64,000 nt of DNA, taken from Antedon mediterranea. Lineage: Eukaryota > Animalia > Echinodermata. Positions 1,351 through 38,531 of the stretch are shown piece after piece. The notes beneath the pieces were generated by a model. The model was not told the DNA's origin and did no database searches. It was given only the letters and a program-made list of their open reading frames with translations. The DNA lies in the NCBI RefSeq assembly GCF_964355755.1, contig NC_092673.1, forward strand, positions 6,758,001 through 6,822,000. Reading direction: 5' to 3'. Position 1 is the first letter of the stretch; the number at the start of each line of letters is the position of its first letter. The translations under genes were made by a program, and so were the position numbers.

Positions 1351-2716
1351 GTAATATCCACTATGTTCATAAAGCATAAACAAAAACACGAAGTAAAAAG
1401 AAACGCCAACATGTTTTGGGAACAAACTAACCACCACCAAAAAAAAAGAAGAATAAAAAGAAGGAAACAAAAAAATCTTATATAGGCGTAACAAAGATAC
1501 AAGTCTACTTTATTGTCAAAATCTTAAAATGTTGAGATATATTTTGTACCTTAGTAGATCATTAAATAATACAAAGTGATAAATATTTAAATAAATGATT
1601 TTACTCGTTTACTATTAATTTAAAGTTTTGATTAAACAAATTGCATGCCATATAAAGTGTTGAAAATCTGAAACGGTTTGTGGAAATTGTTTTCTGTGTC
1701 AATCTAGCTAGCCCTTCCTGATCTGTTAATAAGAGTGTGATGGGTGGGATGTGTCTTGTATAAATTAGTTAAAATGTCTTAAAGATGTATTGTCTCTTGA
1801 AACACATTAAATGAAGGTCAAAATATTAAATTAGCCATATCAAAGTATAATATATAATATATATAAATATACTTTAAGTCGAAAATTCGAGCTAAAAACA
1901 ACAAGTTTACGTAATTAACAGGTAAATTAGTTTGAATACATTCCGTCTGGAAAATCGTCGCGAGCGAAAGTAAACAAATATTTCAAACCACGAGTATGCA
2001 TTATGCATGATGCTAATTAGGATTGTTTACAACTCGTCACGGTTGAGAAGGTGTTTTCACACAGATTGAAGTTTTATGATTATCCATACAGAGTAGCCAA
2101 AGAAGCGCGTTGCATTATGAGATATGTTTTGATCGAAAACTTTGACTGGAAGTCAAAGTTATTTTTTGAACAAAAAACGTCTGTATTTCAGTTAAATACA
2201 TTTTTTTCGACTAATTTTTGGTTAAAGTTAATAACTATTATGATACTTCAAAATGACCCACTTTTTTCGAAATATTTTTGTAACATTTGTTTGGGAATTA
2301 GTCAAAGGGACAATAAGTATAAACATTTAAATTCGGCACACTTAAATTTATCGGCTCTGATATGCATTTTATAAGCATAAAATAAGCTTTTTTTCCCCAA
2401 ACTTTATTTTCAGAGAGACGATAGGGCAGTACTAATAGGAATAAAGTTGCAAACATTTTTAAAACATTGTCGAAAATGATCATTTTTTTTAGTCACGCGA
2501 ACGATGTAAAACAAGTTACGCCCTCTGTTGGCCGCTTGGCGAATGCACGAAATAAACAAGGTTTTCGTAGTAATAAATTGAATATAAAATTACGTTTTTT
2601 AGTAATTTATTATATATATTATATCAACATTGTCAATATCAATAAAATACGGATTGTTAAACACCTTTAAAAACTTGATAAATACCCAAAAAAAATAACA
2701 GGAATTTGGTCTAAAG

Positions 2717-2837
2717 TGAGACGTTTCGGCCCACAAAGTGGGATGTTTTGGCTCAAAAGTGGGCCGAATCGTCCCACCAAAAGTGGCCCGAATAGTCCCG
2801 GGCCGAATCGTCTCAGGGCCGAATCGTCCTGGAACCT
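2717..2837. mobile_element. Solitary end of a DNA transposon with GGCCGAATCGTC subterminal repeats
   Basis: Four GGCCGAATCGTC-like motifs plus one inverted copy, ending ...CCTGGAACC. No partner end found. Confidence 0.5.
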
Positions 2838-2891
2838 GACAACCAACTCCGGAGTGTCTCCGGAGTTTTGCTTTTGGTGTGAATGGGGTAT

Positions 2892-3320
2892 AATAGAGGA
2901 CGATATCATTATTTAATACATCAAACATAGAGGGCGCTATTATCAATATTCTTAAAATCATGGGTAAAACTAAAAGTAGAAAAACACAACTGATTCAAGA
3001 AGTGATGTAGAAAAAAATTAGAAATTAAAAACGGCAAATGCATATTAACAATAAACACCAAACAAAAATTGAAAATTAATACTCAAGAGTAAAAGCAAAT
3101 GGTTGTCTTGTGATAACCGCAAAATATATAATAGCGCCCTCAAAATGGTATGCATGGAAATAAACGAATATTTCATGAGAATGGTCACGAGCACTCACAT
3201 GACGGACCTCCCTTTAGATAAATGAAATATCGTGAGATTTTACGAAATCATGTCCAAACTAATAGAGGACGATATTGTTAATTTTTTTTGTCAATACATC
3301 AAACATAGAGGGCGCTATTA
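2892..3320 (+). repeat. Dispersed direct repeat (about 2892-2943 and 3261-3320)
   Basis: AATAGAGGACGATAT...AATACATCAAACATAGAGGGCGCTATTA occurs twice, with a partial inverted copy ATAGCGCCCTC near 3131. Confidence 0.6.
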
Positions 3321-3555
3321 AACATTTAAATTAGGTTTGTCAGAAAAAATACGATGCCAACTTATTTTTTCAATTAATAAACAATACATGAATTTATTTA
3401 TTATAAATATCTTTATATCTTAATATCGGGACATTTTTTTTGTTTATCCAAAATATCCGGACGAAATTGGAAATATATATTACGTTCTATATAAAGAACA
3501 TTTATTGAGCGCCAAACGATAATGTTTACAATAACATATTAATTTTCATATTTTC

Positions 3556-3649
3556 TTTTTAGCTCTATAGCTCACTATGTCGGTCGGTTGGTCGGTAAAC
3601 CCAACTCAAATTTTCACACGCGACTGCAGTCATGTTTATGGCCTTGTTT
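3556..3649 (+). mobile_element. Helentron-associated short element (HINE/DINE-1-like), 5' hairpin deleted
   Basis: Shares CTCTAYAGCTCACTATGTCGGTCGGTTGGTCGGT...CACGCGACTGCAG.CATG..TATGGCCTTGTTT with the copy at 36892-37000. Confidence 0.65.
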
Positions 3650-5970
3650 ATATAAACTTGCAATTTGTTCTTATTTTGCACTAATTGATATGTTTCAGTC
3701 ATTGAGGAGTTTTGAAATAAATAAAAATGAATAACTTCGACGATAACGACAATTGATATCATAAACTACTCTCTTAAAACCTACTGCTTTTAAGCCTGAT
3801 TGTTCGAACTAAAGTCCCAACACGAATTACTTAAGTTCGACGATGTGTAAGCGAGGTAGTTGACCTTAGAACATCACATTGATTAATGCCTAATTGTCAT
3901 TGCGAGTAAAAAAAAAATGCAGCCTGTATTGCTTTAATCCTATTTAATCCCTTGCGACTTCTACTTTCTTTGTGTTTTGTTTATTAATCTTCGTACACGC
4001 TGTGGTGTTACTTGATTTTTCCAATACACTAGATAGTGGCAAATAGCACTACTCTGATAGATGAATAATGTATCGTGTCTCGGGCCATACATTGCTTTCT
4101 TTTCTCTTGAGTAATGGAATTTTGTGTGAAATCTGAATTTTAATCCGAATGAACACAAATCAACGACGTGAACACACTTGCTGACAAATTTATTTAAGAT
4201 GATAAACGAAGAAAATGTAATGCCGGGTATTAATCAATAAAGGATGGATAACTGAATGTGAAGAAATAGATAGATGAGTTGATTAATATGAAGAGAATCA
4301 ATAAATAAATAGATGAATATGTGAATTGATTAATGAATGCAATACATAGTAGGTGAAAGAATAGCTGAATAAATGCTGTACACAATATTTGATAGGTAAT
4401 ACAGTATTATGAATGTTACACAATGGAGAAATAAGTTTCTCCGTCCTCTATGAGGACTAGGGCTGCATCAAGAGAGGCGACTTACTCTTGCGGTATCCAA
4501 GGAAAAATTTGAATTCTTTCGAGGTTCTTTTAGTTATTCTGCAACACATTTATACAATTTATTACCAGTTGTCATAAAAGATTCTTCCAATATTAATTCT
4601 TTTAGTTTAAAAGAATAGTTTTATTGTAATTATTTTAATGCCATGTATATGTTTTGTTTGTAATACAAATAAATGACTACCGAGATGGAATAGTGATGGA
4701 AACTATGTTGAATTCCAATAAAAAACTATATATATAATATAAACATAAATCAACTATCATTAATATTTTATTTTTTACGATTTAAGAGCACATATTAATG
4801 ATAAAATTGGTTATTTATATATATTATATTGTTCAAAATAGAATAAAATAAATAAAATAAATACATATTGTCATTGTACTTCCTATTTATGTGTCGTCTT
4901 ATATGTGCTTTTGTAGAAGTAAATACTATAGAACTCTTCGATGAACACCCCTATTGAAGGGACTTAAAGTGTGGTGGATTCCCAATTAAGAGGACAATAT
5001 ATTTTTAACAGCAAAGAAGACCAAACAATTTTATTCATATACCGTTATTAATACAAGCAATTGATAAGAAATTATGATACTTTCTCTAGTTTTTCTTTTC
5101 AATTTCTTTAGTCCAGCAATTATTGTTCATTTTGGATATTTATTCTTTCTTTTTTCCCGGAAGTACCTACTGTCCCCTTAACGGGGTTTACTGTATCAGT
5201 AATTTACCTATATTTCGTTCTGACCCGTACTAAATAACCCATTTATGAAATAATCTATCTAATTGAAACGAACTAAACAAAACAGAAAGCTAAATAAAAA
5301 ATTAACGAACACACAAAAATCGATTTTAAAACATCGTCTCACACATCCATAAATCACTGAATATACTAAGATATTTACTTATCCTGCAAAAATCTTATGA
5401 ATGCTAAATGAAATGAAAATAAACCCAAAATGACGTTAGATATTGAACAAAGCAGGCGAAATATTAAACGAGATATCGCTAAGAGCAACAAGTCAAAAAA
5501 TAATAAAATATAATTCAATTTATGAAATTCTTCACTGTCACACACCTTACACAAACGAAAGTCTGTTTATTCTGTTTAAGCTCACCATCTATAATGTTAA
5601 TAGGTTATTTACATTGTCAAAAACCTGTGTGATTGATAACATTAATTGCACCGTTTGTCATCCTTTATATTAATTTCTTTTAATTTTGTCGATTATACAG
5701 TTAGAAATGATTTTTTTTCATACAAAAGTTTCACCTGTTTACGAAAACACGAGGAAATTGAAAGACGAAAGAGGGTTAATAATTCATTAGAATTTTTAAA
5801 TAGAAATTCGAATTATTTATCCTGAAACATCGATGTGATTAAAGTTCAATAATATGAATGGGAAACATAAAGAAACCTATAGGTAAAAAAAAATACGCAG
5901 AATAAGAAACAAGAAAAGAAAAACAAGGATATTTACAAACTATTGGAATGGTAAATCTATACTGAAAGAT

Positions 5971-6247
5971 TATTTATTTTATTTTATTTTTATTTTTTTA
6001 TTTTTTTATTTTTTTTATTTCATACTCATCCAACAGCGAGTAACCCGCCAATTACAGGATGGATAAACTATTTAATAATTTCACAAGACAAACATATACA
6101 CAAGATGCTCTACATAAACAAAGACTTATTATTAAGTCTTTGGGAGTGGAGTTGTAAATTGTCATGAGAAAAAAACCCTGACATATGACAGGACTTGAAC
6201 CCAGGACCCTTGGCAGCCAAGCATCATAACCACCAAGCCACAGCTCC
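5971..6247 (-). mobile_element. tRNA-derived SINE
   Basis: Minus-strand head GGAGCTGTGGCTTGGTGG (A box) ... GGTTCAAGTCC (B box), with an A-rich (AAAAT)n tail at about 5971-6020. Confidence 0.65.
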
Positions 6248-7061
6248 ACTCCTATGATTATGACTCTTATGATATGTTTTGTACTAAGAATGTAAAGAAA
6301 GGTGAGTGATTGTCACAAAAGACAAATAAAAAGTATATTTATATGAGAAATAGGCCTACATTAAATTATTTACTCAAAAACTAAAAAATTAAACATTGTT
6401 TTGATTAATGATCAATTGTGTGTTATTACTATTAGATACACATTTCAATTTCTATTTTTTCATCAGAAGAATGAAATCACAATTACAGTTTCATTCTTCC
6501 CTGGTTTAATTGCATTACTATTTTGTGGTATATTAGGCCTACTCCTGCAGGTTTTACTTACTGATAGTATTATAAAAATAAAGATGATTTGATGTTGCTT
6601 AGTAAGAGCTAACAACCTACAGTAGGGCCTAACTATATATAAATGAAATATAAGTTCTTATTATTAAGATATTGACAATGATAATGGCTGACGTATTTAA
6701 GTTTCTACTGATGTTAGATACATTTTTTTTAACGTTGCAAAACCTCTGTATACATCAATCACTTAATTACCCTTATTTTTTGCGTTTTGTGATGGCACTA
6801 GTTACGTTTCGTCATGCACGAGTAATTTCTGAATGACGTATTGCAAATAAGAGTGGCCTATGCAATCGTCGTTCATTACGAGTACCATCGGGTTATAGTC
6901 CGGTATGCATCTGCATCATGATATTGCAACAAGCAAGACATTTTGAAAATAAAGGTGGAATGAATTTAGATGTTTTGTACCTCAGGAGAATATTGACAGA
7001 CATCACAGTTTTATAAATTAATTAATAATCAGGCAACAACAAATAGCTTGATTGTGTTAAG

Positions 7062-7193
7062 TACACTATCAAACTAGTTTGACTAAAAAGTGTGATGTGT
7101 CCAAATATGGTAGTGATATGCTCAAATATGGTAGTGATATGACATCATCATGTCCATATATAGGCACATAAAGTTTGATGTGTATACAGAGCT
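7062..7193. mobile_element. Harbinger/Tourist-like MITE family A copy
   Basis: TACACTATCAAACT...AGTTTGATGTGTATACAGAGCT-TTA with internal CAAATATGGTAGTGATATG repeats. Confidence 0.75.
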
Positions 7194-7525
7194 TTAAGGA
7201 GTATTAAAAGAGACAATCGATTCTGTCGCTGTTTATGAATAAATATCAATAGATCCAAAAACAAAATAGATCAAATTAATATGATATTTGGTTCTTATAA
7301 GTGTCAAATATAATTATATATATTCATATATAGTATGTTGTTTTGTAGAGCACTCTTCATTTCGAAACGGTGCATTTTTGTTGTGAATACTATTATCATT
7401 TTGCAAAGCACGCTCGTTGAGCGTGTGCACTCTTTGTGTTCATAATCAGTGTACCATGTCCCGCATACCTGGCTCAGCCTATATATTGTGCCAGTTCTGC
7501 GGTACATTTCATTTCGAAACCTGAG

Positions 7526-7570
7526 CTGCACTGACAAGATCTAATAAGATCGAAACAGTACTGTCTGCAG
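7526..7570 (+). ncRNA. Type I hammerhead ribozyme, probably inactive copy (core G8A)
   Basis: Same fold, but the core reads CUGACAA (A at 7536) instead of CUGACGA. Confidence 0.7.
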
Positions 7571-7700
7571 ATTGGATATCTCGTTGAGCTTGTGCTCTCT
7601 TTGTGTTCATAATCAGTGTACCATGTCCCGCATACCTGGCTCAGCCTATATATATATATATTGTGCCAGTTCTGCGGTACATTTCATTTCGAAACCTGAG

Positions 7701-7745
7701 CTGCACTGACGAGATCTAATAAGATCGAAACAGTACTGTCTGCAG
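7701..7745 (+). ncRNA. Type I hammerhead ribozyme, intact copy (predicted cleavage after C7740)
   Basis: Stem I CUGCA/UGCAG, core CUGACGA, stem II GAUC/GAUC with loop UAAUAA, GAAA, short palindromic stem III CAGUACUG, GUC cleavage triplet. Confidence 0.88.
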
Positions 7746-7867
7746 ATTGGATATCTCGTTGAGCTTGTGCTCTCTTTGTGTTCATAATCAGTGTACCATG
7801 TCCCGCATACCTGGCTCAGCCTATATATTGTGCCAGTTCTGCGGTACATTTCATTTCGAAACCTGAG

Positions 7868-7912
7868 CTGCACTGACGAGATCTAATAAGATCGAAACAG
7901 TACTGTCCGCAG
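7868..7912 (+). ncRNA. Type I hammerhead ribozyme, core intact, first stem I pair mismatched (predicted cleavage after C7907)
   Basis: CUGACGA, GAAA and GUC are all present. The 3' arm is CGCAG rather than UGCAG, giving an A-C mismatch next to the cleavage site. Confidence 0.75.
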
Positions 7913-7944
7913 ATTAGATTGGATCAAATCAAATCAAATCAAAT

Positions 7945-8224
7945 CAGGCAAAGAACATTAATTCTAAACCGCCCGGTGATATACTGAAATTTAATTAATT
8001 AATTTGAAACGATAAAGATGAGGAAATCTGTGAGAATAAGAAAAAGTCGCCCCAACCGAGACTCGAACTCAGACCACTGGGGCTTTCATGGTATTGTTTG
8101 AACTCGATAAACATATCAGACAAAGAACATTAATTCTAAATCACCCGGTGATATACTGAAATTTTAATTAATTAATTTGAAACGATAAAGATGAGGAAAT
8201 CTGTGAGAATGAGAAAAAGTCGCC
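7945..8224 (-). repeat. ~107-bp direct duplication (about 7945-8051 and 8117-8224) with a tRNA-SINE head remnant
   Basis: Two near-identical copies. The spacer contains GAGTTCGAGTCTCGG (B-box-like) on the minus strand. An (AAATC)n run precedes it at about 7924-7946. Confidence 0.6.
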
Positions 8225-9149
8225 TAATTATATACTTTTCATAAACCAGTTCTGTTTGTCTGACCTATACTAGGAATTCTAAATTCAGCATTTGCACTCG
8301 CTGTTCACATTCAATGTCTTTAATCATATAAAGATTTTAGAGTTCTCTAATACTTTAATAGAGCGTTAACAAATTAAAATGACCATCGATATGGCAGTGA
8401 TACGTGATTCATTGTCACTGATAGAAATGATGAATGAATAGTTTGCGAGTATACAGACGTCATAGTGCCAGTTTTATTCAAATGGCGCCAATTTCCAAAG
8501 GAAATGAAATTTTGACACCTTCTTTCAGATTAACAATTAGAAAAAAACGTAAATTATTTCCTTTTCAGATGTTACACTAATAACATTGTAAAATGTAGTT
8601 TTTCTTATTATCATTAACGTGATGTCTTGTTCAATTTTATTTATGCAAGATCATTAGGCCTAGAAAATTCACAAACAGTTTGTATACGAGAAGAGTACTT
8701 TCTCGTGTTGAAATCACGTTTTATATTAGACACTACGACATTTCATTTTGCTCCAGCGTTACACGCATGTATCACAAGGCAACATTGGATTCAACGTCAT
8801 TTAGGTTGTACCGACAGGTGGCAATACGCTAGCAATTGTCTTAAAGTATCTTTCCAAAATTAAAGATTATAAACTGGCTATTTCTTTGTCATCGTCAACG
8901 ATAGTATTTAAAACTAAGTGTTGTATTCCGCCGAGATGGATGACATGGCAGCACAAAATCATGTCGGTGTAAATAAGCTTTATATGTGATGATTGTGCAG
9001 GTTAGAGGAAAATAATATTATGTAAAATAAAATAACAAATTCAAGATTAACAGTAAAAATATCGAGATGATAAATCAATAGGTTAATCGATTAGACAAAA
9101 ACAATATGGGCCTATTTTGTTGTTTTGACTATTAGGATATACTAGTGAT

Positions 9150-10145
9150 TTGGTACAGTCACTGAAACGGTATTGGAAGGTAGTCTACTGGAATAGTGAT
9201 CTGGTACGGTAGTGGAACATAAATGCTGTACGGTATTTGATTAAAAATGATGTGTTACGGCATAAGAAAGTGTTGTGGTACGGTATTTGAAGAGAGTGAT
9301 GTGGTACGGTATTTGAAGAGAGTGATGTGGTACGGCATTGGAAGAGTGATGTGGTACGGTATTTGAAGAGTGATGCGGTACGGCATTGGAAGAGTGATGT
9401 GGTACGGTATTTGAAAAAGTGATGCGGTACGGTATTGGAAGAGTGATGTGGTACGGTATTTGAAAAAGTGATGTGGTACGGTATTTGAAAAAGTGATGTG
9501 GTACGGTATTGGAAGAGTGATGTGGTACGGTATAGAAAGAGTGATGTGGTACGGTATTGGAAGAGTGATGTGGTACGGTATTTGAAAAAGTGATGTGGTA
9601 CGGTATTTGAAAAAGTGATGTGGTACGGTATTGGAAGAGTGATGTGGTACGGTATAGAAAGAGTGATGTGGTACGGTATTGGAAGAGTGATGCGGTACGG
9701 TATTTGAATAGTGCTGTGATACGGTATTGGAAGAGTGATGCGGTACGGCATTGGAAGAGTGATGTGGTACGGTAATTGAAGAGTGATGTGGTACGGTACG
9801 GTATTGGAAGAGGGATGCGGTACGGTAATTGAAGAGTGATGTTGTACGGTATTGGAAGAGGGATGCGGTACGGTATTTGAATAGTGATGCGGTACGGAAT
9901 TAGAAGAGTGATGCGGTACAGTATTGGATGTTATGTTGTACGGTATTGGTACCGGTACAGTATTTGAATAGTGATGCGGTACGGTATTGGAAGAGTGATG
10001 TGGTGCGGTATTGGGAGAGTGATGTGGTACGGTATTTGAATAGTGCTGTGGTACGGTATTGGAAGAGTGATGTGGTACGGTATTCGAAGAGTGATGTTAG
10101 GCCTACGGTATGGGAAGAATGTGGTGGTATTTGAAAAGTGATGCG
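9150..10145. repeat. Minisatellite, 24-26-bp unit GGAAGAGTGATGTGGTACGGTATT, about 40 copies
   Basis: Directly visible tandem array. It generates ORFs 9185-9751 and 9928-10134. Confidence 0.95.
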
Positions 10146-10975
10146 TTATTCAATTGGTTTTAAAATAAAATAACATAAAAGAACCATTACAGAGACGTGA
10201 TTTAATTTGTTTAATAAAATATTGAGTTTTCTTAGGCAAAGATTTTTGATCTGTTAGAAGAAAAAGCACCCAGGTATAAACATTTCTAACGAACATAAGA
10301 CAGAATGGAATAATATCTACACATTGTAAAACAGATCTGTGTGAACGAGAAGGTAAATTGCAAATATTTCATCAATCCTCTTGATATATGATTAACCAAT
10401 ACACACAACTCCTACTAACGAAATAATGATCTCAATTTTGAATTTAACACCGTCTTATCATTATGTTGTAATAATTCATATGATTTCTATCCGTACAAAT
10501 GGAAAGCTTTCGTTTGAAATACACTAGGGGCACATTAAACTTCTCTCAATTATCGGCTGTAGCATATGAATATCTCTACTGAGATAGTTTTTAATCAGAA
10601 CCAAGGCAAAACTAATCATGAATCTATGAAGCAGAAAATAAAGTCGTATTGAGCAGAGATGAAATTTTTAATAGTTTGTCTCGTTAACACCCATCAGTGT
10701 TATTGGATCGTTATTAGATAACTTGCAAGTAGTTGTCGGAGATAGATACCAGTGCACGAGTAACTTCTAACGTAAATGACGTCTAACTTACGGTATGCTA
10801 CAATTAAGACATAGAGATAGTTTATCCAATTCTCATTGTGTAAACTAAACACACTGTTATAAGCAAATTCTGAAAGTGACAGTCAGTATATAATTCTCAT
10901 ATATGTGTAAATATAATATATGATGTCGTATTTGTGTTTATATTGTGGATTATATAACCTTCCCAAATGTTATTT

Positions 10976-11040
10976 AAGTTAAGCAACGTTGGGCTCAATT
11001 GCGTACTGGATGGCCGACTGAGAATATCGCGTTGGTGCTG
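10976..11040 (+). pseudogene. Degenerate 5S rRNA fragment (pseudogene or 5S-derived SINE head)
   Basis: AAGTTAAGCAACGTTGGGCTCAATTGCGTACTGGATGGCCGACTGAGAATATC resembles the internal control region of animal 5S rRNA (AAGYTAAGCA...GGGCC.GGTTAGTACTTGGATGGG.GACC..CTGGGAATACC). The 5' half is absent. Confidence 0.5.
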
Positions 11041-12203
11041 ATGGACTATCTAATCCACAATATCTAATTAAGTGACGTCATTATCAATAAGACCAATAAT
11101 CATATCGTTTGAATATTTAGATTAGACAACTTAAAGGTTTGTTAACAACGTCTAAACTATAGTATCACTTATGTAAAAGCCATTACTGCAATTCATATAG
11201 CAAAAGTATAAAGTATTCAAGGATTAAAATTTGTGATGTTAATTACTTATCATTATTCAGTTATGGCATACGGCGATTATTAATCGTTATAATTTTTGTT
11301 CATGAATTAACTTGAATTTCAATACCACTTTAAGAGAAATTTAAAACGTATGGTAAAACAAAGTCATTACTATTTTTGAATTAAATGAAAATAGTATGAT
11401 TATAATATGCAATTAGGCCTACAATATTCCTTAATATCGAAAAGGCTAGTCTAGTGTTTAACAGTAGAATAGATCGCCACCGTGCAATAGTATGTTCGCT
11501 ATACTCGATAACTCATGTGTCTATTGCTTGAGTGAATATAATACTGCACATTGAACGGTTCCAAGTTCCCAATCCAATAAATATTTTCCAGAAAATGTGG
11601 GATATTTACGGGGCTTCTGGCATAGTGCACATATATTGATATAGGACCTTATATTTTAGACCCAGTTAGTACGCCCTGCTAGTACCTCATTGACATCGCA
11701 TGCAAAACCAAGGAGCTTACACACACCCGAGGGGCACATAGGCCTACAAAACGCCGGTGTTGCTAGGCGATATGAAAGGGTATACTTTACACTACGTTAT
11801 ACTTCTTTAAAAAGGACACAAAAATAATCGAGGACCACCACCACAATCCTTAAGACAAACACAATCAATTTAAAATAGATAATAAAACAAAAAGAGATAA
11901 TATCCCAGCTTAAAGTGTTTAAACATAAAAAATCCTTATAATTACGTCAATAAATTATTCAAGGGTACAAAATTAATGAATCAAAACTAAATTAAAAAAC
12001 GGTGTATGCAATTCCAAAGGAAATAGAAATAATGTGTTAAAATTAATGATTTTATTAATGAGGCAATCTGTATGAATACGGTAGTAAATCATTCACCGTA
12101 GTCCATCTATTGAATCTTTTAGCTTTGCAGCCACTAATAACTGAATTTATAGCAACTTGATTTATAGCAATTTATAGTAGTACGTACTTATTGGCCATTG
12201 CTT

Positions 12204-12455
12204 GTCAACGGTATAGCGAGCGGTTAAAACAGTGGAACCGTAATACCTTCCATAACATCGGAAATGATTCGAACCTCACTCGCTTCATGGGTCTGGTGGT
12301 AGAAGGAGTCTTATCGGATAAGTACTATAAACCATAGGTCCAGAATAAATACTTTAAAGAACCTATAGTTCGAGACGAGTAGGACCCCGGTGTAGTGGTA
12401 TACACACAGCCACTTATAACTCATCATGGGGGCTCTTGAAAACAAATAATAATTA
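12204..12455 (+). mobile_element. tRNA-derived SINE with Deu/Nin-like central domain
   Basis: A box TAGCGAGCGG and B box GATTCGAACC, then CGGATAAGTACTATAAACCATAGGTCC...TTAAAGAACC...GAGTAGGACCCCGGTGT resembling the Deu domain (recalled from memory), and an A-rich end. Confidence 0.55.
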
Positions 12456-12946
12456 ACATTAACGGTAAAGCTCCGGGCTATAATGACATTTAAATTGATA
12501 ACAATTATGATGACGTAATAACTAGTATTGGACGAAACACAACGCAAGTGAATCGATCAAATGCACAAGCGATAATTTGGATAATCCATCGCGTCGCGAT
12601 CGTTCAAATACTTGTGACGTGTTTGCGCTTCCGTCATCGTCCTTGCGTTTCGTCCATGTTGAAAAGCAAGCTTTATGATCTTTTTGAAAATCAGCTCATC
12701 ATATTATATTTAATTTAAGTACTGTATATCAATAAAATAATAAAATAGCCGATTCTCTGTATATCTTACGTTTTTTCTTCCAGGTCTAAAGATCTCTAAA
12801 GATAGCTATCTGTATTTAATACTGATGTACGGTATTTTATTTAAATTGACAGAGGACCCCTTTATATCAGTTGTTTTTAAATGAAGACCTGCACGGGTAA
12901 TCATCTTTAACGATGGTACATAAAATAAAGTGTGTAGCTTAGGCCT

Positions 12947-13095
12947 ATTCTTATTCTTATTCTTTTATTGCCAAATATAAAATACATGAAGAACACGATA
13001 TACAAAAAAACAATAGAACCAACTGAGTGAGCTGGCAGGGGACACAAAAGCGAACCTAATCACTGTGACTTAAAGCCTGTGTCCCCCACTCACCC
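12947..13095 (-). mobile_element. 3' end of an L2/CR1-type LINE (stem-loop plus microsatellite tail)
   Basis: Stem GGGGACACA...TGTGTCCCC followed on the minus strand by AATAAA and (AAGAAT)n. Confidence 0.5.
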
Positions 13096-14926
13096 CCTAT
13101 TAGTGTATCACCTATTATCAGGAAACTACAAGTGTGCGCTGTATATACTGTACGTCAGACCAATGGATTCAAGTGTACTAAAGACATTGGATTTTGATAG
13201 AAACTGTTTCACAGTCTTTCAAAAATATTGGAAACGTTGTTAACATGTCCTTATGTTAACATTATTACCAAATACAGTAATCGACTCCTTACAACAACAT
13301 GGAGACGGACGGAAAAGGGACGGAAAAGGAACGAAAGGCATTAGGATGGAAATCTTGGAACGATGTAAAGCTTGTGACCAAAGACTGGGTGGGTTCACTG
13401 CATGGAGACAAACATTTTCAGATTCACGGGCTTTTCTATCAAAACAAAAGCTTAATTTTCATCTAAAATGTATGTTAAAATAATTTAAAATATTTTATAT
13501 TATATATTTTATGCCTTTATAAACATTGGTAAATGATATTGAGCAACTGCTTCATGGGCGCATTAAACCACCACAGTATTCGACAGAATGAACTTATTCC
13601 GAGCTGAAAAAGAGACATCTCTGCCAAAAAAATAAACAATTAGATAGACTATATGTAATGATTCTCCTGACTCTTGCACAATCATCATTCATGCTCTTCT
13701 TAGTTGATTTACGTATCTCTCAGAGGTGATTATGTCATCGAAAAGCATAAACAAGCCAAGTGGATTTTCTCGTTAACAACATCCAACATCGTGGCCAAAT
13801 TTGGATTTTAATAATTCATAAATCAAACAACAAGTTTTATTCACTAGAGCGATACAAAATAATCTCCTTATAATACAGTTCAGCTACAACTTCATTGCGT
13901 CGTTATATCCAAGTGATTAGGCGATAATTACTATGTCGTTAATGGTTTATAACGACGTAACGGCCAATGAGCTTTCGCATGCGCACAGAGATTAGTAAAT
14001 TATCGTTGAGAATGCACAATAAAATAATAGTATACGTGTAAACATTAGAGATAATTTCACACCTATGCCGATAATTATAACGATGAGAGTACAAATAGAC
14101 AGAGGGTGTTTAATAGAACGATGTTTGTGTATACATTACCAAATTCTATCTATTCGCACTATCGTTATGTAATCAGTCTATTTTGATCCAATACTTCCAA
14201 ATACACCAGACTAAACACTATTTGAAAATGTATATGGAAATGTTACTTTATATTCCTTGAATTCAATCACAAATTAGTTATGTCATCAGACCGGATATGA
14301 TCTTTCGCCCATAAAAAAGTACAGTTCCGTATAATTTCTATGATTGCTACATACAATAAATCAAAGTCTTAAAGAAAATATATAAAATAATTTGCCCACA
14401 AGCTAAATGAATTATCTATTTTTCTTTAAAGGCATAATAATAGATTGATTTTAACGATATGAATTAAATTAAAATCTTATTTTATAATGTTCAATTTACG
14501 ACGTATTCATTCGAGACGGTATAAAGTCGGACGCTTCACAAACAATTTAATCACATGTAATACACTCTGCTTGCGTGGATAAATAAATACATTGTTATTA
14601 AATATCATGCGATCCTAATAAATTTCCAATTATCTATTACTAATTTTCAATTTCTTTTGTAGCAAACAAATGGGTTTAATTTAGTAGAAAAGTAGGTATT
14701 TTATATAAATCTATCTTTTAGATGGACGATGCGTGTTGTTCATTTAGTATTCAAATTGTAAATAATAAAAGAATAGCTTTATATGGCTTGGCGTTTGGCA
14801 GCAGCAATGTGTTTGTTAAATGTTATTATTTTTTTTCTATTATATTGGTGCTTTCGGATTCGTTTACCCTTTACGGATGTGAGTTACTTATGTGATCTTT
14901 CCTCGGTCATTTCTTGTGGTGTGTAA

Positions 14927-15072
14927 AGCTTTGTCTCATATCAAATTAGTTTGACAAAAAAAAGTGTGATGTGCCCAAATATGGTAGTGATATATTATCA
15001 AATATGGTAGTGATATGACATCATGTTTTCCAATACCACTTTTTTCACATACAATTTGATAGTGTAGACAGC
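14927..15072. mobile_element. MITE family A copy
   Basis: TAA-AGCTTTGTCT...TTTGATAGTGTAGACAGC-TTA with the same internal repeats. Confidence 0.75.
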
Positions 15073-16492
15073 TTAAGAAACAGAGAACATTTGTTTCCGA
15101 TATAAGTTACGATCAATTATACTCGTATTAAATGTTTTAGACCGTTTGAGTTTGAGAATTTGAGAAAGGTCTATATCTCAGCTATAACGATATGCGTTTA
15201 TATACAGTTATATCGATATTAAGATTTCAATTTTGTTTAAAATTGTTTTAAACTTGTTAATTTGTCATGACCACTGACACATTTAGAAGGTTAGCATGAA
15301 TGATGAATGCTAGCCCACGCAGCCATGGAGCAGAGAATGGCACACTAAATCGCGTATTTCACAAAATGGTCTGTTTTAATCTGGCCGTTGAATAGAACAA
15401 TTCACAATAATATTACCGGTGGATGAAACGAATTAACCAACGCAAAATGATACGACATCATCCAATCAAGTTTCAGTGATAAACTTGGACTGTAATTTGT
15501 TAGAAAACCCAACTAAAATTATTTCCTTCCATTAGGCCCTATAGCAGTTAAGAAATGGAATCGAGAATAATGGTGCTGTTAACCTTTTTTCCTCAAAGCC
15601 CATATATTTGGTGATGGTGCAGGTATATCTTTAATTAACTCTTACGGAGGACTCATTGGTAGCTTTTCATTTATTTTAATTGTTGATATTGTTAGTTATT
15701 GAAAGAAAGTCTTTGAATTTGATACATGGAGAATATCTTGTTTTACAGTAAGATTCGATGATATGGATCTATCCGTTTTGTATACAGGTCACTTGAGTGT
15801 TCAGCAAAATTGGTAAAAGGCCACGAGTACAATGTCTTTTGCTAAGACGATTTGGATACTTTAATGTAATAGATCTTGCGATGTATGGCCTAACAATACA
15901 GTACAGAAATGTGTTACAGAAATGAGAAAATGAGGTTAACAGTGTTAAGACAAGTCGTGGCTTCGAGGCAATTCGTACAATTTCCAATAACAAGGTCGCG
16001 AGTTCAATACTTGCTTTTAGCATCTTTTAATTTCATACCTCTTAACACTTGTAAATAATTTATATAAAACCCTTCATTTCTCGGCGTTGAGAAGGTGGTT
16101 CGTGACTGTCACCGAGTTCTATCAGATTTGCATTAAATAGTGTTAATATTGAATATGATAGACTGCTGATATGAGGCCTATTTGATAAAATGGCAAAAAA
16201 ACAGTTATGACCGTATAATTCACTGGTCAACTCGCTGGCGTTGCGTTTTTAAAGGGGAGCAAATTTAAAGTCTACAACATTAGTGAATACCACTAAAGGG
16301 GAATTAAATATTTACTCACTTAAGTGAATGGCTTATAGTAGCCTACACAAATATATCATTCACTAGAGTGTGATTGTTGAATATGTACCTGTAGCCACAC
16401 CACATTTAACACAAATATAAAATTTTATCAAGAAGCTTTAAACTTTTCAATGTAGATTACATAACCCGATACCTGATATATAATATATTTTC

Positions 16493-16562
16493 TACCTCCG
16501 CCAAGGAGGTTTTTATGTGTTTATTAATTAATCGGGGACGGAGTATGTATCTACCTGATGCA
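16493..16562 (+). mobile_element. Short degenerate HINE-like element of a second family
   Basis: 5' TACCTCCGCCAAGGAGGT hairpin and a degenerate 3' GGACGGAG-TATGTATCTACCTGATGCA subTIR plus hairpin. Confidence 0.45.
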
Positions 16563-18628
16563 AGTAAACAAACGTTTAAAATAGGTAGTTAGTTGTTTTT
16601 TTTTCTATATGAAATATCAGTTAATGAATTTGTTTAGTTTACTTCGTTTCAGCAATATGCATGGTTTATATCTAATATCACTTTTCACAATAAGTACTTA
16701 TTATTTAATTGTATAATTCTCTGACAATTCTCTACAACTGCTTAACTGTTTAACTGCTGCAACGTGGTCCACAAAAATGGTCCTTAACGGGAAGCATACA
16801 TGTATTTCCAATTACTGTATTGTGCTTCAATTATGTTAGCTTTGAAGACAGTGATTATTTGGTAAGTAATACTCGTAGCCATTGGGTAAATATGGATCAA
16901 TTTGGATTATAATGACAATTGTGAAATACACATTATTTCGCCGATTCTCTTATAAGTGTATGGTATTATAGCCAATTGTGTAATGCAATTCAATGTATCA
17001 CATGTGACTGTACATGTGACCTAACCTATAGTCTTTTGTAAGAAAATATTAAAAATCATTTTATTGCAACTGATATTAGAAATTTAAAAAAAAATTGTTT
17101 AATCAATGGGCCAATAGTTATATGAATAAAATAAATATTTAGCGATTTAAAGATGTTGCGTTTAAAGGCGATTAGATTTATTACATTATTTTATTTACAT
17201 ATTGATATACATCTAATACTACGTGTCCCTTCCTATGGGTGGCTCATCATCGGTAAGCTCATGTATAGCTTTTCTGCATGCACAACAAATCGCACTGAGT
17301 TATCATGATGAAGTCATTTTAATTACTAAAATTGGGCTAAAATCAAATAACTTACTGAAAACAAATTTAAGAAAATCGTAGAAACTCAAATGATGGCGTA
17401 AATATTTATACTAACGCCCTCTGTTGAATGATTTTATCACTATAATTTGATATTTGTACAATTATTAATGTATGCTTAATTTGGTAATATCACTACAATA
17501 TTATTGATAGTCTCTTTGAAGTTTTATTTTATTTTTATCTTGCTGTGTATTTATTTAGATTATCTATGTTCTTTGGTCTGGTTAGGCCTACGTTGGAGGT
17601 TGGAAGCATCATTTGTAGGACAGAATAGGTAGTGTGTCGAACGGCGCCTCGTACTTGTACTTAAATAGAGGTGTCGGAATAGACGTATATTGTTTAATAT
17701 TGGTTGTAGTACAAACACTATTGTCACTCATTCGTTTAAAAAAAATGTCCCCTGGTGTGTCCAAATGGAGGAGTTCTATACCCATACCATTATCATTATA
17801 TACTTTCATTGATATCATATTATAATATAATATTAATATTATTGATTATCTGTACTGTAATGTATCATCATCCTTTTATTATCATAATTAATCAATATTA
17901 TTATAATACATTATATTTATTAAATTATCTAATTTTCAGTCAGTTATAATGTTTTAGCACTATCATAAATAGCGTTATCATTAATATGTGATATGAAAAC
18001 CGTTAGTTGTTTCATTCATTTAAAATTATGTTCCTCAAATTACACACGCAAGCTACGAAACACATTACTTATCGACACAAATCAAACCATCTAACAAGTA
18101 AACAACATTAGATAATGAAATCAGATATTTTGATTGCAAAGCACAATCTCTTCAATATAACTTGGATTACAATGAAATCTTAGTTTTAATATGATTCGAA
18201 AAAAAAAAAATCATTACAAACTCGATATTGTCTGCGTTCATCAGCAGACGATGCAGAGAAGTTTAATTAGCGCGAAAATCACATCGTATTGTTGTTTGAT
18301 GATTTTTATTATCTGGTTTTGAAGCAATTTTCTGGTGTATATAATATAGGCCAATTTATTATTCGCATTAACTATATACTTTTGTTGATAAAGAGCAGGT
18401 AATATTGCTTTAGGCCTATTCAACAATGATGGTTATTGCGAGCTGAATCAAACGCAATATGCACAAACTACGCTTGGTGGTAGAGAAACGATTTCAAACA
18501 AATTTTATTAATGTTTTTGTTATTAATTTACTATAAGAAGAATATAAGAATACAACTGCATTGTTATTTTTGGCACACATAGAATTTTGTACATGCACCC
18601 ACAGCGCTTTAATTTTGCAAACAATTTT

Positions 18629-19014
18629 TGTCTACACTATCAAACTTTATGTGCCCATGGACACGATTATATCAAATTTTGGAATAATTTATCACTCAAC
18701 ATAAAACATAATACATCAAAAATTAATTTCATAAAAAATATAACTGAACAACTATTATCGAGATACTGATTAATGCTGGCCCACCTCTTTCTTTTTGTCA
18801 TAATTGTGGTTTTCTAATTATTGTATAATTATATTATCAAAATCGTTTGCACTGAACAGAATATTTGTAAATCAGGTGTAAACCATTGACTAGCGAAAGC
18901 TATTTGTTTATACCGTTTTGCCTTTGGTAATAAAGAATTATGAATATCACTACCATTGGGTATATCACTGCCTTGTCGCACTCTTTTTGTGAAACTAGTT
19001 AGTGTAGACAGACC
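18629..19014. mobile_element. MITE family A copy split by about 280 bp of other sequence
   Basis: Left end TGTCTACACTATCAAACTTTATGTGCCC at 18629; right half TATCACTACCAT...AGTGTAGACAGACC-TTA at about 18946-19014. Confidence 0.55.
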
Positions 19015-19066
19015 TTAACAAAAGTTCATAACTCCTTCGATAGTATACATTTTCCATGTGTATTAA

Positions 19067-19220
19067 AGGGTAGGTCCAGGTTTGAAATTCCTATTATTAT
19101 TTTGAAATAAGCACCTTTTTGAAGAAAACAAGCGGTGCTACTGTACAGGACGTATTCGTAATATATTATTGCAAGGTTTTTATGCCTATATTTTAAAAAT
19201 ATTATACCCGGATCTATACT
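19067..19220. mobile_element. TTAA-flanked MITE (Kolobok-like termini)
   Basis: TTAA-AGGGTAGGTCCAGG...CCGGATCTATACT-TTAA. A second copy ending CCTGGAGCTACCCT-TTAA (19474) was duplicated with about 75 bp of right flank (units about 19071-19300 and 19335-19554). Confidence 0.65.
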
Positions 19221-19555
19221 TTAATAGAATTTAAAAAAAACGAATAAAGTAGTCCGAAAGAGATGTAATGTATTCATTCTCAATTGAAAAAAAATCGGAT
19301 TTGGAGATTAGGTTCTGGCCGGGTAACGCACTAATAGCTCCAGATTTAAAATTCTTATTATTTTGAAATAAGCCTCTTTTTGAAGAAAAAAAAAGTGGTG
19401 CTACTAGACTGCTAATATATTGCAAGGTTTTAAAGCCTATATTATAATATATTTTTTATACCTGGAGCTACCCTTTAATTACAGAATTTAAAATAAACAA
19501 TTAAGTAGTCCGAAAGAGATGTATTTATTCATTCTCAATTTAAGAAATCGGATTA

Positions 19556-19660
19556 TAGCACAGTGCAGCGCCTAAAAAAGGGCCGGCTGAGGTGGACCAG
19601 TAGGTGCAGTACACCGGGGTAACCCTCTATCATCCGAAAGATGCACCGGGTTCTTTACCG
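19556..19660 (-). mobile_element. Fragment of a Deu/Nin-like SINE
   Basis: Minus strand GTAAAGAACCCGGTGCATC...AGAGGGTTACCCCGGTGT, similar to 12356-12395. Confidence 0.4.
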
Positions 19661-20715
19661 AAAACTCATGATTGGCCGTCTTTTTAAAAAATACTGCATT
19701 TAAGAACCAATAGTATACACATCAAAAACATGGAACTACACAGCAGTAAAAGTAGTTTTACGACACCAGAAAACCAGCCATATTGTAAATGAAAGCCCTT
19801 GAATTTCATGAAAAATACATGCGATATGTGTGTTATTTTTATCATCATCCCATCACTGTGTAAAATGTATACAGTAATTTAAAAATGCATAAATCGTTAT
19901 GAAACACAGAATCTCTAAGCCTATAATAAAGAAATCTAGCATTTATTTTGTTACTTTTACCGATTATTTTGGATTATATTATTTATTGTATTTTTAGACG
20001 TTTGGCTTCTGATTTCCCCACGGATTAGTTGTGTTCAAGTACGATATTTTACAGGACTCTAGAGATTTAATATGCTATATTTACGTTATACCTTTTGATC
20101 GCGTCTGAATGTTTTGCTTAATGCGAATCACTATGTCGCTTTATTTCTGTACGCCCTTAATTATGGTATATCGATCTCTAGTAAATTACATAAAAATATA
20201 GGGCTGCAAAAGTGACAGTCAGGGTACTACACCAGCCCGAGTACGATCGAGAGCAGAGTACCAGATTTCAGAGCCGAAGCTATCCTCTATAGTCTTAGTT
20301 TAGTTTCAGATGCCATGTTTGTTTGCCGGGTAAACAGCAGTTGAAGTGTCAGACTGACCAATGATATGACAAAGGCAAAAGGAAATAAGCGTTATATTTT
20401 CTATACATTTCAACTGTATTTCAAATATTTCATTTTAAAGATGCATTGTTCCCCTGAATTTTTTTTTGGCTGAATATGCCATTTTAATGTCACGTAATAG
20501 TTATCCACTATGAACAAATATTGAATGGGAAAAAAAATGTATTTATCTGTAAAAAATAGTCAAATTGGCTGCCAGCCAATCGATTTTGGTTGAATTTTAC
20601 CATTTGTTTTCATTTCATATGAGAAAACATTTGTTTCTCTTTTTTTACGGAAGAGTTAACTTTTTTTAAACTACAAAATAATCTATTCAAAGTCTGATTT
20701 AATTAATCTTCGTTT

Positions 20716-21559
20716 GTGTCTAGAAAACTCAGATCTAGAAAACTCAGATCTCAGACTTTTCTAGATCTAGAAAACTCAGATATCTGACTTTTCTAGATCT
20801 AGAAAACTCAGATATCAATATCTGGGGTTTCTAGTTCCAAAATGGAACTAGAAAACTCAGATCACCATATGATTGGTTGGTAGGTCATTTGGATCATTCC
20901 ATTAGTAATCAGAAGGTAGGTCATTTGAAATACTAGAGTATATTATTGAAACTGGTTACTGTGTACGTTTTCTTACTTAACATGTAGAAGCGGCCGACGG
21001 CTTAAATAATAAAGAAAATACAGTGCACGTTACCGTTAAAATGTAGGCTTAAAAATTAGGTATGTACGAGTTGGTGTGGGTACGAGTTGGTTGAGGTACG
21101 AGTTAGCCAAGTTGGGAAAAGGTACGAGTTACGACCACTTCTAGCCTAGTACCGGGCCAGGCCTACTCTTGGCGATACATCGCGATAGCGCCCACACGTT
21201 GAGCCGTAAAATTGAGTTTGCAGGCTCGGCCTAAATACCAAGCCTACATTTTAAAAGGTGTATACTGTATTTCTTTATGATTTAACATAGGCCGGTACTA
21301 AGTTACAATAATAATTATTATTAGTAAGAAAACGTATAATACTGTAGTATTTCAAACAAGCTACGGTACCCTCTGATAATAATAGAACGATCCATTTGAT
21401 GATCTGGGTTTTCTAGTTCCATTTTGGAACTAGAAAACTCAGATATTGATATCTGAGTTTTCTAGATCTAGAAAAGTCAGATATCTGAGTTTTCTAGATC
21501 TTAAAAAGTCAGATATATCTGAGATCTGAGTTTTCTAGATCTGAGTTTTCTAGACACCC
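20716..21559. mobile_element. Foldback MITE with TCTAGAAAACTCAGA subterminal repeats (MULE-like)
   Basis: About 150-bp near-perfect modular TIRs, with degenerate inverted symmetry continuing inwards. TSD CTTCGTTT at 20708-20715 and 21560-21567. Confidence 0.85.
21059..21137. mobile_element. Nested fragment with GGTACGAGTT repeats
   Basis: Four GTACGAGTT motifs sit near the centre of the foldback element and have no mirror in the other arm. Confidence 0.5.
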
Positions 21560-24500: not shown

Positions 24501-27016
24501 ATTGAAAACTGAATATTTTGTGAGTTTTGATGGAAGTAACACTGAGACATCTTCAGCGGACACCCAGAGGCGACTTCTTCCTCTCATTGATACAATAATT
24601 ACACTAGGCCTATACATTGATATAAACAACTTATAACTGCAGACAGTAATATTAGCATGAAATAGAAAGTTTTGGCTCGTATTACACGATCATTGAAACG
24701 AAATATACGTTTATGGATTTTGATGATCTTCTTTCGGTTGCATTCAGACTATTTTTGAATATACTTTTTAGTCACATTTCAGCATCAGTCGATTGGTTAA
24801 TTACACTGACTCTATATAGAGTCATATAATCCAGTTTATTGATACATTCTATAGCACCATTGACAACGTAATCAAAGAAATCTATTATTTAAACACATTG
24901 ACAATGACAAGATATTGTAATTTGTACTTTAAAAGGCAATTCTAATAATTAATGTAGACGCCTCATACGTATAATTAGAATCAGTGTATTTCAGAGACCG
25001 TATACCATCAATTCATCTTCCCTTTTTTCTTATTATATACGAACTTAAATGTTTAAGTAACATATTCTAAAAATAAAACTCTAATTTAGATTTACACGTT
25101 TATAGCAATTTCTTGCGAGCTGTAAGATGTACTGTAATGAGACAAATGTCTAGGGGTAAAATTGAAAAGAGGTGACTGAAGGAGTCATGCTTTAATCATC
25201 AACAGCTTCTAAAAAGAAATACATTTGTTTCATAGAAAAACAATTTTATTACGATTTAAACGCGTGTCCTACGTTTTTAAAAGCTGGAGACAATGCCTAG
25301 CTTTTACTTTCTCAATGTATCGAACTATTACAGGTAAATGGAGAAATAAAATAGGGAAATTCGCAGGCACAACTCTGCACCTAACATCCATTTATTTGCA
25401 CCTTGATGATTGATTTTCCAAAAAGATGTATTAAAGACGATGTTACATAAAGAAGAGGGACCATTCTTTGAAACAAATTTGAAGGAGCAAGTTTTTTCTG
25501 ATGTCCCGAGGAACTATCGGTATGTGTCTCGCCTTCTCCTTGTTGAGGGACTTTCGTCGATCTACGAAGTAGGACCTAAGTTACGTTAAGCACATGCGGA
25601 GACATATATTAGTATATAATTACGATACGATATTAAATACCATTTTAAGTCTATAGCCTAAATCTTTTAAAGTGCAGTTTCATCAACACTTTTACGCATG
25701 CGCATTTTAGGTCATAAATATCTAACATTTGCTGTAATAATATTATTTGATAAAAACGTATAACATCGTTGATTGTTCTTTCTTTATCCTTTTAAGCAAC
25801 AACTAATAAACCGACAAAAAGACATGAGTGCTTTACTTAATCATATACCTGCCTAATTGATACAAATTATGCCGAAGATGATCAATTATTTAGCAGTAAA
25901 TTGTGCAAAATTGAAATGGATTGCTTTCACCAGAAGATTTATGCAGCTTATAAAAACAACTCGTCGTTAATATTTCAGTCAGAGAGCTGCCGTACACTTG
26001 TTTCAATTGAGGCATTAATTGATTTTTTTATACGCCTACCTTCGCCTTTACATTTTGTTATTTAATAAAGGAAATGAAACGAATTGATTGGGATGGAAAC
26101 GCTGAAATTTGCTGTGCCTTTAGCTATCATATCGCATTGCCGTTAGAGCGGTGCGTTAGTATGATACGCTATCATTATTATTGGCTTCTTCGAATACACC
26201 GATTGAATTTTACTAAAATACCGCGCGCGTTAGCCAATCAATGATTTAATATTCAGATGATTATGTTTTCAGATGGATGCATTTTTACGGGGAGTTCGTG
26301 GTGTCCAGAATAACATTTACTTTAAATGTATTTTACCGTGTCCACCTGTCCATCGTGTCCACCTGTCCATCGTGTCCCTTCGCTCATTATATTATATGTG
26401 TCTTCTGGGTGTTGTATGAAATTAAGATTCATATTAAAGTATTTCCTCAATTATTAATGCTTCGTTTCATTCTCAACATTCAAAACATTTTTCATTTGTG
26501 TTTTACTTTCCCGTAAATATTTCATCGATCGTTATACTTGTTTTTGTTTTAGTTTTATTTTATTGTGTTCGTTTTATCACAGTTCGCAAAATATACTTAA
26601 CTTCCACGTGATATGAATTTAAGACGGCGTCATATCCTTTAAAAATGTTAGAGAAATTTAATGTGTCTGGTGTTTTTACTGCATCGAATATTGATATATA
26701 AACTGTGTGAAATGAAAGCAGAAACAACAGACATATTAGTAAGTATTCAGTAAGCAATAATATTGTGTTTGGTGGTATTTTTAACAGTTGAGATGCAAGA
26801 ATTAGGCTATGGTTTTATTCAAAATGTGGGGATAGGGATGATTGAAGGAGACGAAAAGAATACGGGAGGAGCGGAGAGGAATGAGAATAAATAATAGGTC
26901 AATTGACCATTTAGAAGAAATCAGTCTTTCCATACCACTTGGGCGTCACAACAAAATGAATACAATAATAGTAATTGTTGTCGTGTAATCATTTACCGAT
27001 TTGCCTTACCAAAGTA

Positions 27017-38469: not shown

Positions 38470-38531
38470 AAGATTGTCCCACAATATATTGTCGGTGTTA
38501 AGACTAAATGTGGTTAAAATGGAAGGTCTAA

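Follow-up and report, generated by a model that had tools for sequence, protein, structure and literature searches.

A hammerhead-bearing tandem repeat in a crinoid genome: a probable non-LTR retrozyme with candidate promoter motifs and a predicted blocking arm

Three short head-to-tail units, each containing a hammerhead ribozyme, lie in a 64-kb stretch of DNA from the crinoid Antedon mediterranea (hereafter the window, meaning the whole 64,000-nucleotide stretch that was analysed). The question raised by this locus is whether the units belong to a mobile retrozyme family and, if so, how such a family would be transcribed, cut and spread. The original prediction, made from the sequence alone, placed the array in the retrozyme class and in an echinoderm-like host, and both assignments held. 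The element is multicopy, dispersed and non-coding, and a sister organism has an empty site. An LMO4 exon that is 94% identical to that of Anneissia japonica identifies the host as a crinoid. We consider it probable that the locus represents a recent insertion from a dispersed non-coding crinoid hammerhead family belonging to the metazoan non-LTR retrozymes, and that it was likely copied by a Penelope-like enzyme. This class is well described (PMC7229834 and bioRxiv 10.64898/2026.07.22.740005, both in part), and the plain retrozyme reading extends it to crinoids, which is a modest step. The literature leaves two points unsettled, the transcription of animal retrozymes and the means by which their circles escape self-cleavage. 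For the first, the element supplies a candidate core promoter of 36 bp, and for the second a candidate blocking arm of 14 nt.

Units, hammerheads and predicted cleavage

Tandem Repeats Finder (TRF) returned one array at 7413-7919, with 3.0 copies and 93% matches (Table 1). Tandem units of 167 bp had been predicted; the three units are indeed head to tail, and the second is 175 bp long. The last bases of the GUC triplets are 7565, 7740 and 7907, which confirms the predicted distance of 167 nt between C7740 and C7907. The first two sites are 175 nt apart owing to an 8-nt (TA) expansion in unit 2. The bounds originally drawn around the array, 7413 to 7915, proved too narrow at both ends, as the multicopy element begins at about 7319 and extends 17 nt beyond the last cut, to 7924. 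The tail of unit 3 contains a 5-nt duplication (7911-7915 and 7916-7920). The GC content of the element is 42-44%, and no LTR-like flanking repeat was seen around the array in the 64-kb window. Among the window ORFs of at least 62 aa, 138 of 151 were scanned and gave 0 Pfam matches besides two LIM exons; the 13 ORFs outside the scan lie mostly in simple repeats. Rolling-circle translation was considered and dropped, given that the longest ATG frame around the 167-nt circle, on the ribozyme strand, is 22 aa.

Table 1. Features of the element and its immediate flanks, in window positions
Feature	Position	Strand	Remark
Left copy, 10-bp AT-rich direct repeat	7311..7320		Identical to 8225-8234
Upstream segment U, 5' part of the probable long unit	7319..7412	+	Multicopy in 4/4 runs; pairs with unit 1 (predicted)
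Predicted TATA + initiator-like motif, U	7327 / A+1 7359 (7327..7362)	+	Spacing 32
Predicted anti-hammerhead arm	7342..7355	+	Pairs with 7564-7571 and 7523-7529, both stem I strands
Unit 1, 167 bp	7413..7579	+	TRF and alignment
Predicted TATA + initiator-like motif, unit 1	7480 / A+1 7511 (7480..7514)	+	Spacing 31
Hammerhead 1	7526..7570	+	Core CUGACAA (G8A at 7536); predicted inactive as enzyme
Unit 2, 175 bp	7580..7754	+	Extra (TA)4 in hairpin loop; fold and alignment
Predicted TATA + initiator-like motif, unit 2	7655 / 7686	+	Spacing 31
Hammerhead 2	7701..7745	+	Only fully canonical one; predicted cut after C7740
Unit 3 + 17-nt tail beyond cut site	7755..7924	+	Sequence and alignment
Predicted TATA + initiator-like motif, unit 3	7822 / 7853	+	Spacing 31
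Hammerhead 3	7868..7912	+	Core intact; A-C mismatch in stem I pair beside C7907
SINE-like very high-copy repeat	7925..8224	-	About 1.7 copies of a 172-bp unit
Right copy, 10-bp AT-rich direct repeat	8225..8234		Identical to 7311-7320

Stem II, the GAAA, the palindromic helix III and the GUC are identical across all three units, as had been predicted. Two further elements expected in every unit were found only in part. The CUGACGA core is present in units 2 and 3, and unit 1 carries the G8A form; the CUGCA/UGCAG stem I is incomplete in unit 3, where the base after the site is C7908 and the 3' strand therefore starts with an A-C mismatch at the pair adjoining the cut. Hammerhead 2 combines a 5-bp stem I and a 4-5-bp stem II with a 10-nt palindromic helix III. 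The proposed Infernal check gave a divided answer: a scan of the whole window against Rfam at the gathering threshold yielded 0 matches, and below that threshold Hammerhead_HH9 (RF02275) fits all three hammerheads (E values of 7.3e-5, 3.1e-4 and 6.2e-4; 25.9-28.8 bits against a gathering score of 52). The core, the closing pair of stem II and the layout of loops 1 and 2 align with this family, whereas the crinoid stem I is one pair shorter and its distal stem is weak. The single match of a type I descriptor in the window is unit 2 (core at 7706), and 1,628 simulated windows with matched dinucleotide composition gave 3 matches, which places the hammerhead beyond chance.

The helix III letters form a perfect 10-nt palindrome, which makes no hairpin alone and has a computed duplex energy of -13.4 kcal/mol. 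Only site 7740 is canonical as a single ribozyme; therefore, no monomer would be freed if each hammerhead acted singly. The weak palindromic helix III would instead let neighboring hammerheads pair, so that core 2 would cut 7565 and core 3 would cut 7740. Each of these two combinations offers 5/5 stem I pairs and 10/10 helix III pairs, and site 7907 reaches 4/5 stem I pairs with any core. The product expected at this locus is likely a 175-nt monomer, 7566-7740, which paired hammerheads would release, and the natural hammerhead mutants present here predict this product only if the hammerheads act in pairs. Release of a monomer 7741-7907, as originally proposed, needs a cut at C7907 and is poorly supported, because the stem I pair adjoining that site is a mismatch whichever core is used; a mismatch beside the cut slows cleavage. 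Hammerheads with a palindromic helix III layout cleave as a pair (PMC4209133, in part), as do those of axolotl. Against the prediction, only one of nine predicted retrozyme dimers from Xenopus was cleaved in vitro (bioRxiv 10.64898/2026.07.22.740005, in part). The full hammerhead fold, calculated without tertiary terms, costs 4.0-8.0 kcal/mol relative to the ensemble in all contexts examined, the paired one (4.2-8.0) included, and secondary-structure energies would thus favor neither the single nor the paired mode. By analogy with work on coral, mussel and axolotl, a host RtcB-type ligase would then close the monomer into a circle.

Dispersed copies and the empty site

Among 22 sequencing runs from 8 studies, 20 contain part of the stretch, none of them being listed as RNA, and four were compared over 6900-8400: X1 and X8 from organism A, X2 from organism B and X9 from organism C. 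The small shares present in organisms D, E and F form no part of the evidence. All four consist of assembled contigs, in which RNA ends, strand and circles are invisible. X1 may be the source of the window itself, with 0-1 differences in the flank pieces. X8 was considered as expression evidence and rejected, as its RNA status is guessed and its depth pattern follows that of the DNA runs. Single-copy flanks have a depth of 233-266 in X1 and 47-59 in X2, and the element, summed over contigs, reaches 19,078-246,278 and 1,614-20,422, respectively, which is 20- to several-hundred-fold above the flanks in both. Because a summed depth is no copy number, the claim is limited to many copies. Depth climbs in the 5' to 3' direction, from 19,078 at 7360 through 56,440 at 7396 to about 184,000 at the body site in X1 (the last value being a sum over units 1 and 3), and from 1,614 through 5,854 to 10,933 in X2. 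The multicopy part starts at about 7319, which is 94 bp ahead of the array, and pieces begin at 7319 in X9 and at 7326 in X1.

Dispersal is suggested by contig pieces that leave the element at different places. Among the 32 pieces listed, beside 75,866 further ones, record 3 (X1) exits at 7326, record 22 (X8) at 7604, record 13 (X2) at 7785 and record 30 (X9) 7 nt past a cut site, and each continues for 253-1,723 letters that are absent from the listed stretch. We read these four records as 5'-truncated copies dispersed at other loci. The expectation of a multicopy, dispersed family is thus borne out by depth far above the flanks in 4/4 runs, by pieces running into other flanks and by an empty site. 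Record 30 starts at exactly 7413; this start was not counted in favor of the short unit, since a variant 30 letters on explains it. Among the contig pieces listed, none carries a 167-type junction at another locus.

The empty site comes from record 11 of X2, in which 37 letters separate 7180-7285 from 8253-8400 in place of the 967 found in the window; each side extends over more than 100 letters, and the depth is that of a single copy. The insertion reads as recent. The whole 0.9-kb block is missing in the sister organism, which offers an empty allele of the locus. Absent there are the hammerhead element (7319-7924) and, next to it, a distinct repeat of very high copy number (7925-8224); the two would stand tail to tail if the latter reads on the minus strand. 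The direct repeat flanking the block is possibly a target-site duplication of the whole insertion; a match of at least 10 to the flank arose in 35 of 5,000 random 26-mers. Given that it encloses both repeats together, it is not assignable to the hammerhead element alone. On its minus strand, the neighboring repeat has a motif resembling a tRNA T-arm and ends in (GATTT)4, which gives it a SINE-like appearance; its summed depth rises to 2.2 million in X1, and ARAGORN found no tRNA gene in it.

Copies end past the cut site, by 17 nt at this locus and by 7 nt in record 30, which points to an uncut multimer or a circle as the template and away from linear RNA cut at the site. Target-primed reverse transcription would begin a few bases beyond the cut on an uncut or circular template, and insertion at TA-rich targets would leave 5'-truncated copies. 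The reverse transcriptase involved would likely be Penelope-like. For the Penelope-like enzyme of anole, internal initiation, AT-rich targets and uncut templates have been reported (PMC11167929, in part).

Dead cores are rarer than a comparison variant in the unit body, yet they have spread. The G8A form accounts for approximately 2% of core depth in X1 and 5% in X2, and the comparison G>A variant of the body for 8% and 19%, all being rough shares with bin means as denominators. A G8 substitution (G8C) abolishes cleavage, and ribozyme mutants still insert in vitro (PMC11167929, in part). Because G8A occurs in multiple copies, spread is not wholly prevented by a dead core. Among the family variants listed, 0/44 constrained hammerhead positions and 9/122 others vary, a difference that is not significant (p 0.058). 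An origin of G8A by CpG decay was considered and was not supported, the window having an observed/expected ratio of 1.07 and no CpG depletion.

Elsewhere in the window, two LIM exons of an LMO4 gene lie on the minus strand (43281-43595 and 58856-59134), about 15 kb apart. The second of them, which provided the identity to Anneissia japonica LMO4 given above, is 62% identical to sea cucumber LMO4; the hammerhead element is located on the opposite strand, about 35 kb downstream. A short MITE-like repeat of extreme abundance, with inverted copies and internal repeats of 21 bp, occupies 7062-7169 and recurs at 14950-15030, 38527-38692, 43793-43872, 45097-45262 and 47064-47162, with a summed depth of 32 million in X1. 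Two stretches, 20716-21557 and 27015-27487, have long terminal inverted repeats with internal 32-bp or 17-bp repeats and are likely non-autonomous DNA transposons. Minisatellites are present at 9189-10143 (24 bp, strongly G-skewed), 51308-51777 (19 bp) and 62313-62553 (29 bp).

The long unit, its predicted promoter and its blocking arm

A contig joint in X2 runs from 7754 to 7319 with 20 other letters between, at a depth of 527, which is about 10 times single copy and one third of the depth at 7360. The joint therefore implies head-to-tail units of approximately 281 nt. This length, made up of U, the unit and the 20 nt, is probably that of the main unit of the family, and the 167-nt unit would probably be a deletion derivative that lacks the pairing partners in U. 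On the ribozyme strand, 7319-7579 (261 nt) folds at -81.3 kcal/mol (z -5.05, matched by 0/200 shuffles), and the other strand reaches z -1.95. The 167-nt monomer gives z -1.55 when linear and z -1.5 as a circle, for which 23/300 shuffles are as good. A z of -5 or lower also occurs in 3/70 window tiles, so that the value alone is not unique; the difference between the strands points to RNA. Long helices pair U with the unit body, 7369-7390 against 7436-7455, at pair probabilities of 0.98-0.99 and with five G-U pairs.

Two origins of U were weighed and rejected. As a decayed direct copy of the promoter and hammerhead it made a weak case, with 57/2,000 shuffles and 154/1,972 random tiles equaling the score. 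As for an inverted copy made at the DNA level, the finding of 10 G-U against 1 A-C mismatches (p 0.006) favors pairing at the RNA level; the symmetric alignment of U itself is not significant (202/2,000 shuffles).

Each unit carries TATATATT 31 nt ahead of TCATTT, whose A sits 15 nt before stem I. Four of the five TATA-initiator pairs found on both strands of the 64 kb fall inside the element, a pair occurs in 1/756 other tiles, and one arises in 9/20,000 monomer shuffles and 42/20,000 shuffles of U, figures that overstate the significance because the test was chosen after the motifs had been seen. Furthermore, the initiator matches of U and of the unit are not independent, since they share a 13-mer in which a palindrome pairs with the same palindrome in the other copy. 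The variant 7360 T>G, which makes up 58% of depth in X1, 100% in X2 and X9 and 2% in X8, preserves the TCAKTY form of the initiator. U also has three runs of 4-5 T, which would stop RNA polymerase III. In the fold of the long unit, the predicted arm has pair probabilities of 0.75-0.98. Forming stems I and II is calculated to cost 4.25 kcal/mol with the arm present, compared with 0.41 kcal/mol for an RNA beginning at A7359, four bases past the end of the arm.

These features suggest a model in which RNA polymerase II would start at the initiator, 31-32 nt behind the TATA and 15 nt before stem I. In the long unit, this start would lie just behind the blocking arm and would leave the first ribozyme free to fold. 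The complete model, in which each unit has its own polymerase II promoter and an arm, such that the ribozyme would be free in the nascent RNA and locked in the circle, is put forward tentatively, as we regard it as rather doubtful. If true, animal retrozymes would gain a promoter of their own and an explanation of how their circles escape self-cutting. According to the available text of PMC7761336, metazoan retrozymes do not seem to harbor promoters, and a 2020 review suggests read-through, no promoters having been observed. The LTR of a plant retrozyme carries a promoter (PMC12029980, in part). The accessible part of PMC7229834 predicts a free hammerhead in most metazoan circles and raises the question of what blocks it.

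Alternative explanations and known systems

The main rival is that the array represents a detached 3' end (pseudo-LTR, pLTR) of an autonomous Penelope-like element. In this reading, which we hold to be unlikely, 5'-truncated insertions scatter such ends widely, and local DNA-level duplication would then have made the array without any small circular RNA stage. A depth rising toward the 3' end and 5' truncation fit any target-primed element, local amplification of a Penelope terminus has been proposed (bioRxiv 10.64898/2026.07.22.740005, in part), and the lack of a 167-type junction elsewhere among the pieces listed is also in its favor. The hammerheads of Penelope-like pLTRs (PMC4209133 and PMC11167929, both in part) are type I with a 5-bp stem I, and some have a palindromic helix III, which in the pLTR of Saccoglossus kowalevskii(2) has the same letters as in the crinoid element (PMC4209133 supplement, in part). 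Their insertions likewise end slightly past the hammerhead, lie in AT-rich targets and are truncated at the 5' end. However, the minimal hammerhead of pLTRs has a helix II of 7-8 bp and an extra base between 9 and 10.1 (PMC4209133, in part), whereas the crinoid stem II has 4-5 bp and directly follows the core without an extra base. Moreover, the head-to-tail units implied by the joint from 7754 to 7319 leave no space for an ORF, and strong self-pairing of the long unit is confined to one strand. Neither a reverse-transcriptase nor a GIY-YIG ORF was found in the 138/151 window ORFs scanned. The crinoid element also differs in its short head-to-tail units and predicted TATA-type start, whereas the Penelope promoter of D. 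virilis is TATA-less (PMC2377424, in part).

A considerably less probable reading is that the retrozyme was mobilized by a LINE enzyme of the CR1/L2 type and that the block is a single chimeric copy, joined to the SINE-like repeat by template switching. Both repeats are absent together at the empty site, a single 10-bp direct repeat flanks the pair, and the junction shows a short letter overlap and a 5-nt duplication, all of which would suit this reading. Nevertheless, if the neighbor reads on the minus strand, a tail-to-tail pair is not made by one priming event, and one insertion followed by a second at the same AT-rich or microsatellite position would be simpler; the retrozyme also has no LINE-like tail of its own. 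Least probable is the idea that the hammerhead, the promoter-like motifs and the fold persist as relics within a satellite-like repeat now spreading only at the DNA level, for although 2/3 ribozymes here are damaged, unit 2 shows (TA) slippage and the conservation test is not significant, the dispersed copies with staggered 5' ends, the ends just past the cut and the clean empty site argue for retroposition, and approximately 95-98% of core depth keeps G8.

The preferred assignment to the metazoan non-LTR retrozymes was set beside hammerheads in viral and genome collections, in which no crinoid copy of the element was found. A stem II pattern scan matched one phage contig only (L001, the same as L002). 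In an intergenic region of this contig, 28 nt on the minus strand (1499-1526) agree letter for letter with the core, stem II and GAAA of the crinoid hammerhead, and Rfam gives no match there at E 0.05; the site is possibly a phage hammerhead of another type, and the resemblance is probably convergence. A pattern of core plus helix III, which imposed no pairing, gave 1 viral and 14 genome matches, and both stems are paired in 2/15 (L007 and L011). These two have the same stem I and helix III as the crinoid element, with stem II changed on both sides at 2/4 pairs, and the elements that carry them end in (TA)n, 7 nt beyond the cut. Both come from G001, a 12-Mb assembly filed as a bacterial MAG (L007, L011 and L018-L033), in which 24 Hammerhead_1 matches (7 over the cut-off), 64 reverse-transcriptase matches and microsatellites were observed. 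G001 looks like eukaryotic, probably animal, DNA within a prokaryote collection. The short hammerhead element at L011 590-756 (minus strand), which shares stem I and helix III with the crinoid one, lies between two (TA)n runs and has two copies in G001, and a Penelope-type minimal hammerhead is situated about 230 nt upstream. When 7319-7579 was compared with G001, only the hammerhead matched (E 0.009). U and L011 share an 11-letter word, which may be due to chance, and the L011 element is not notably structured (z -1.49).

A literature search found no crinoid or echinoderm retrozyme; most subscription papers and some supplements, which may list echinoderm families, lay outside its scope. Echinoderm hammerheads are already in print, as the PMC4209133 supplement (in part) lists minimal hammerheads from Strongylocentrotus and Patiria. 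In addition, the transcriptome of another crinoid species contains 1,875 Penelope elements (PMC11861897).

The closest known systems are the metazoan non-LTR retrozymes of coral, mussel and axolotl (PMC7229834, in part), which are also non-coding tandem units of 150-450 bp with one type I hammerhead each, a GC content below 50%, a weak palindromic helix III and dispersed copies. Variants in monomer size occur there too, such as 225/245 in Acropora. The crinoid host is absent from the species named in the accessible text. A target-site duplication, when present in metazoan retrozymes, is longer than 4 bp, and the 10-bp repeat here encloses the neighboring repeat as well. The metazoan monomer is highly self-paired, a property that the crinoid element shows over 7319-7579, its 167-mer being not notably structured. 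The predicted TATA-initiator pair sets the crinoid units apart from the seemingly promoterless metazoan ones (PMC7761336, in part), as does the predicted blocking arm from most metazoan circles, some mussel circles excepted (PMC7229834, in part).

Newt satellite 2 and Schistosoma Sm-alpha are comparable as hammerhead repeats with transcription signals of their own, for which cleavage as pairs is possible. The promoter of satellite 2 is reportedly of the snRNA type and that of Sm-alpha is said to be of the Pol III type, whereas the crinoid unit has a predicted TATA/initiator pair. The plant LTR retrozyme NbRZ1 resembles the crinoid element in having its own promoter upstream of the hammerhead, probably for Pol II, and in a complementary stretch that blocks the hammerhead in the circle; it differs in its type III hammerhead, LTRs, PBS, PPT, 4-bp TSD and Gypsy partner (PMC12029980, in part).
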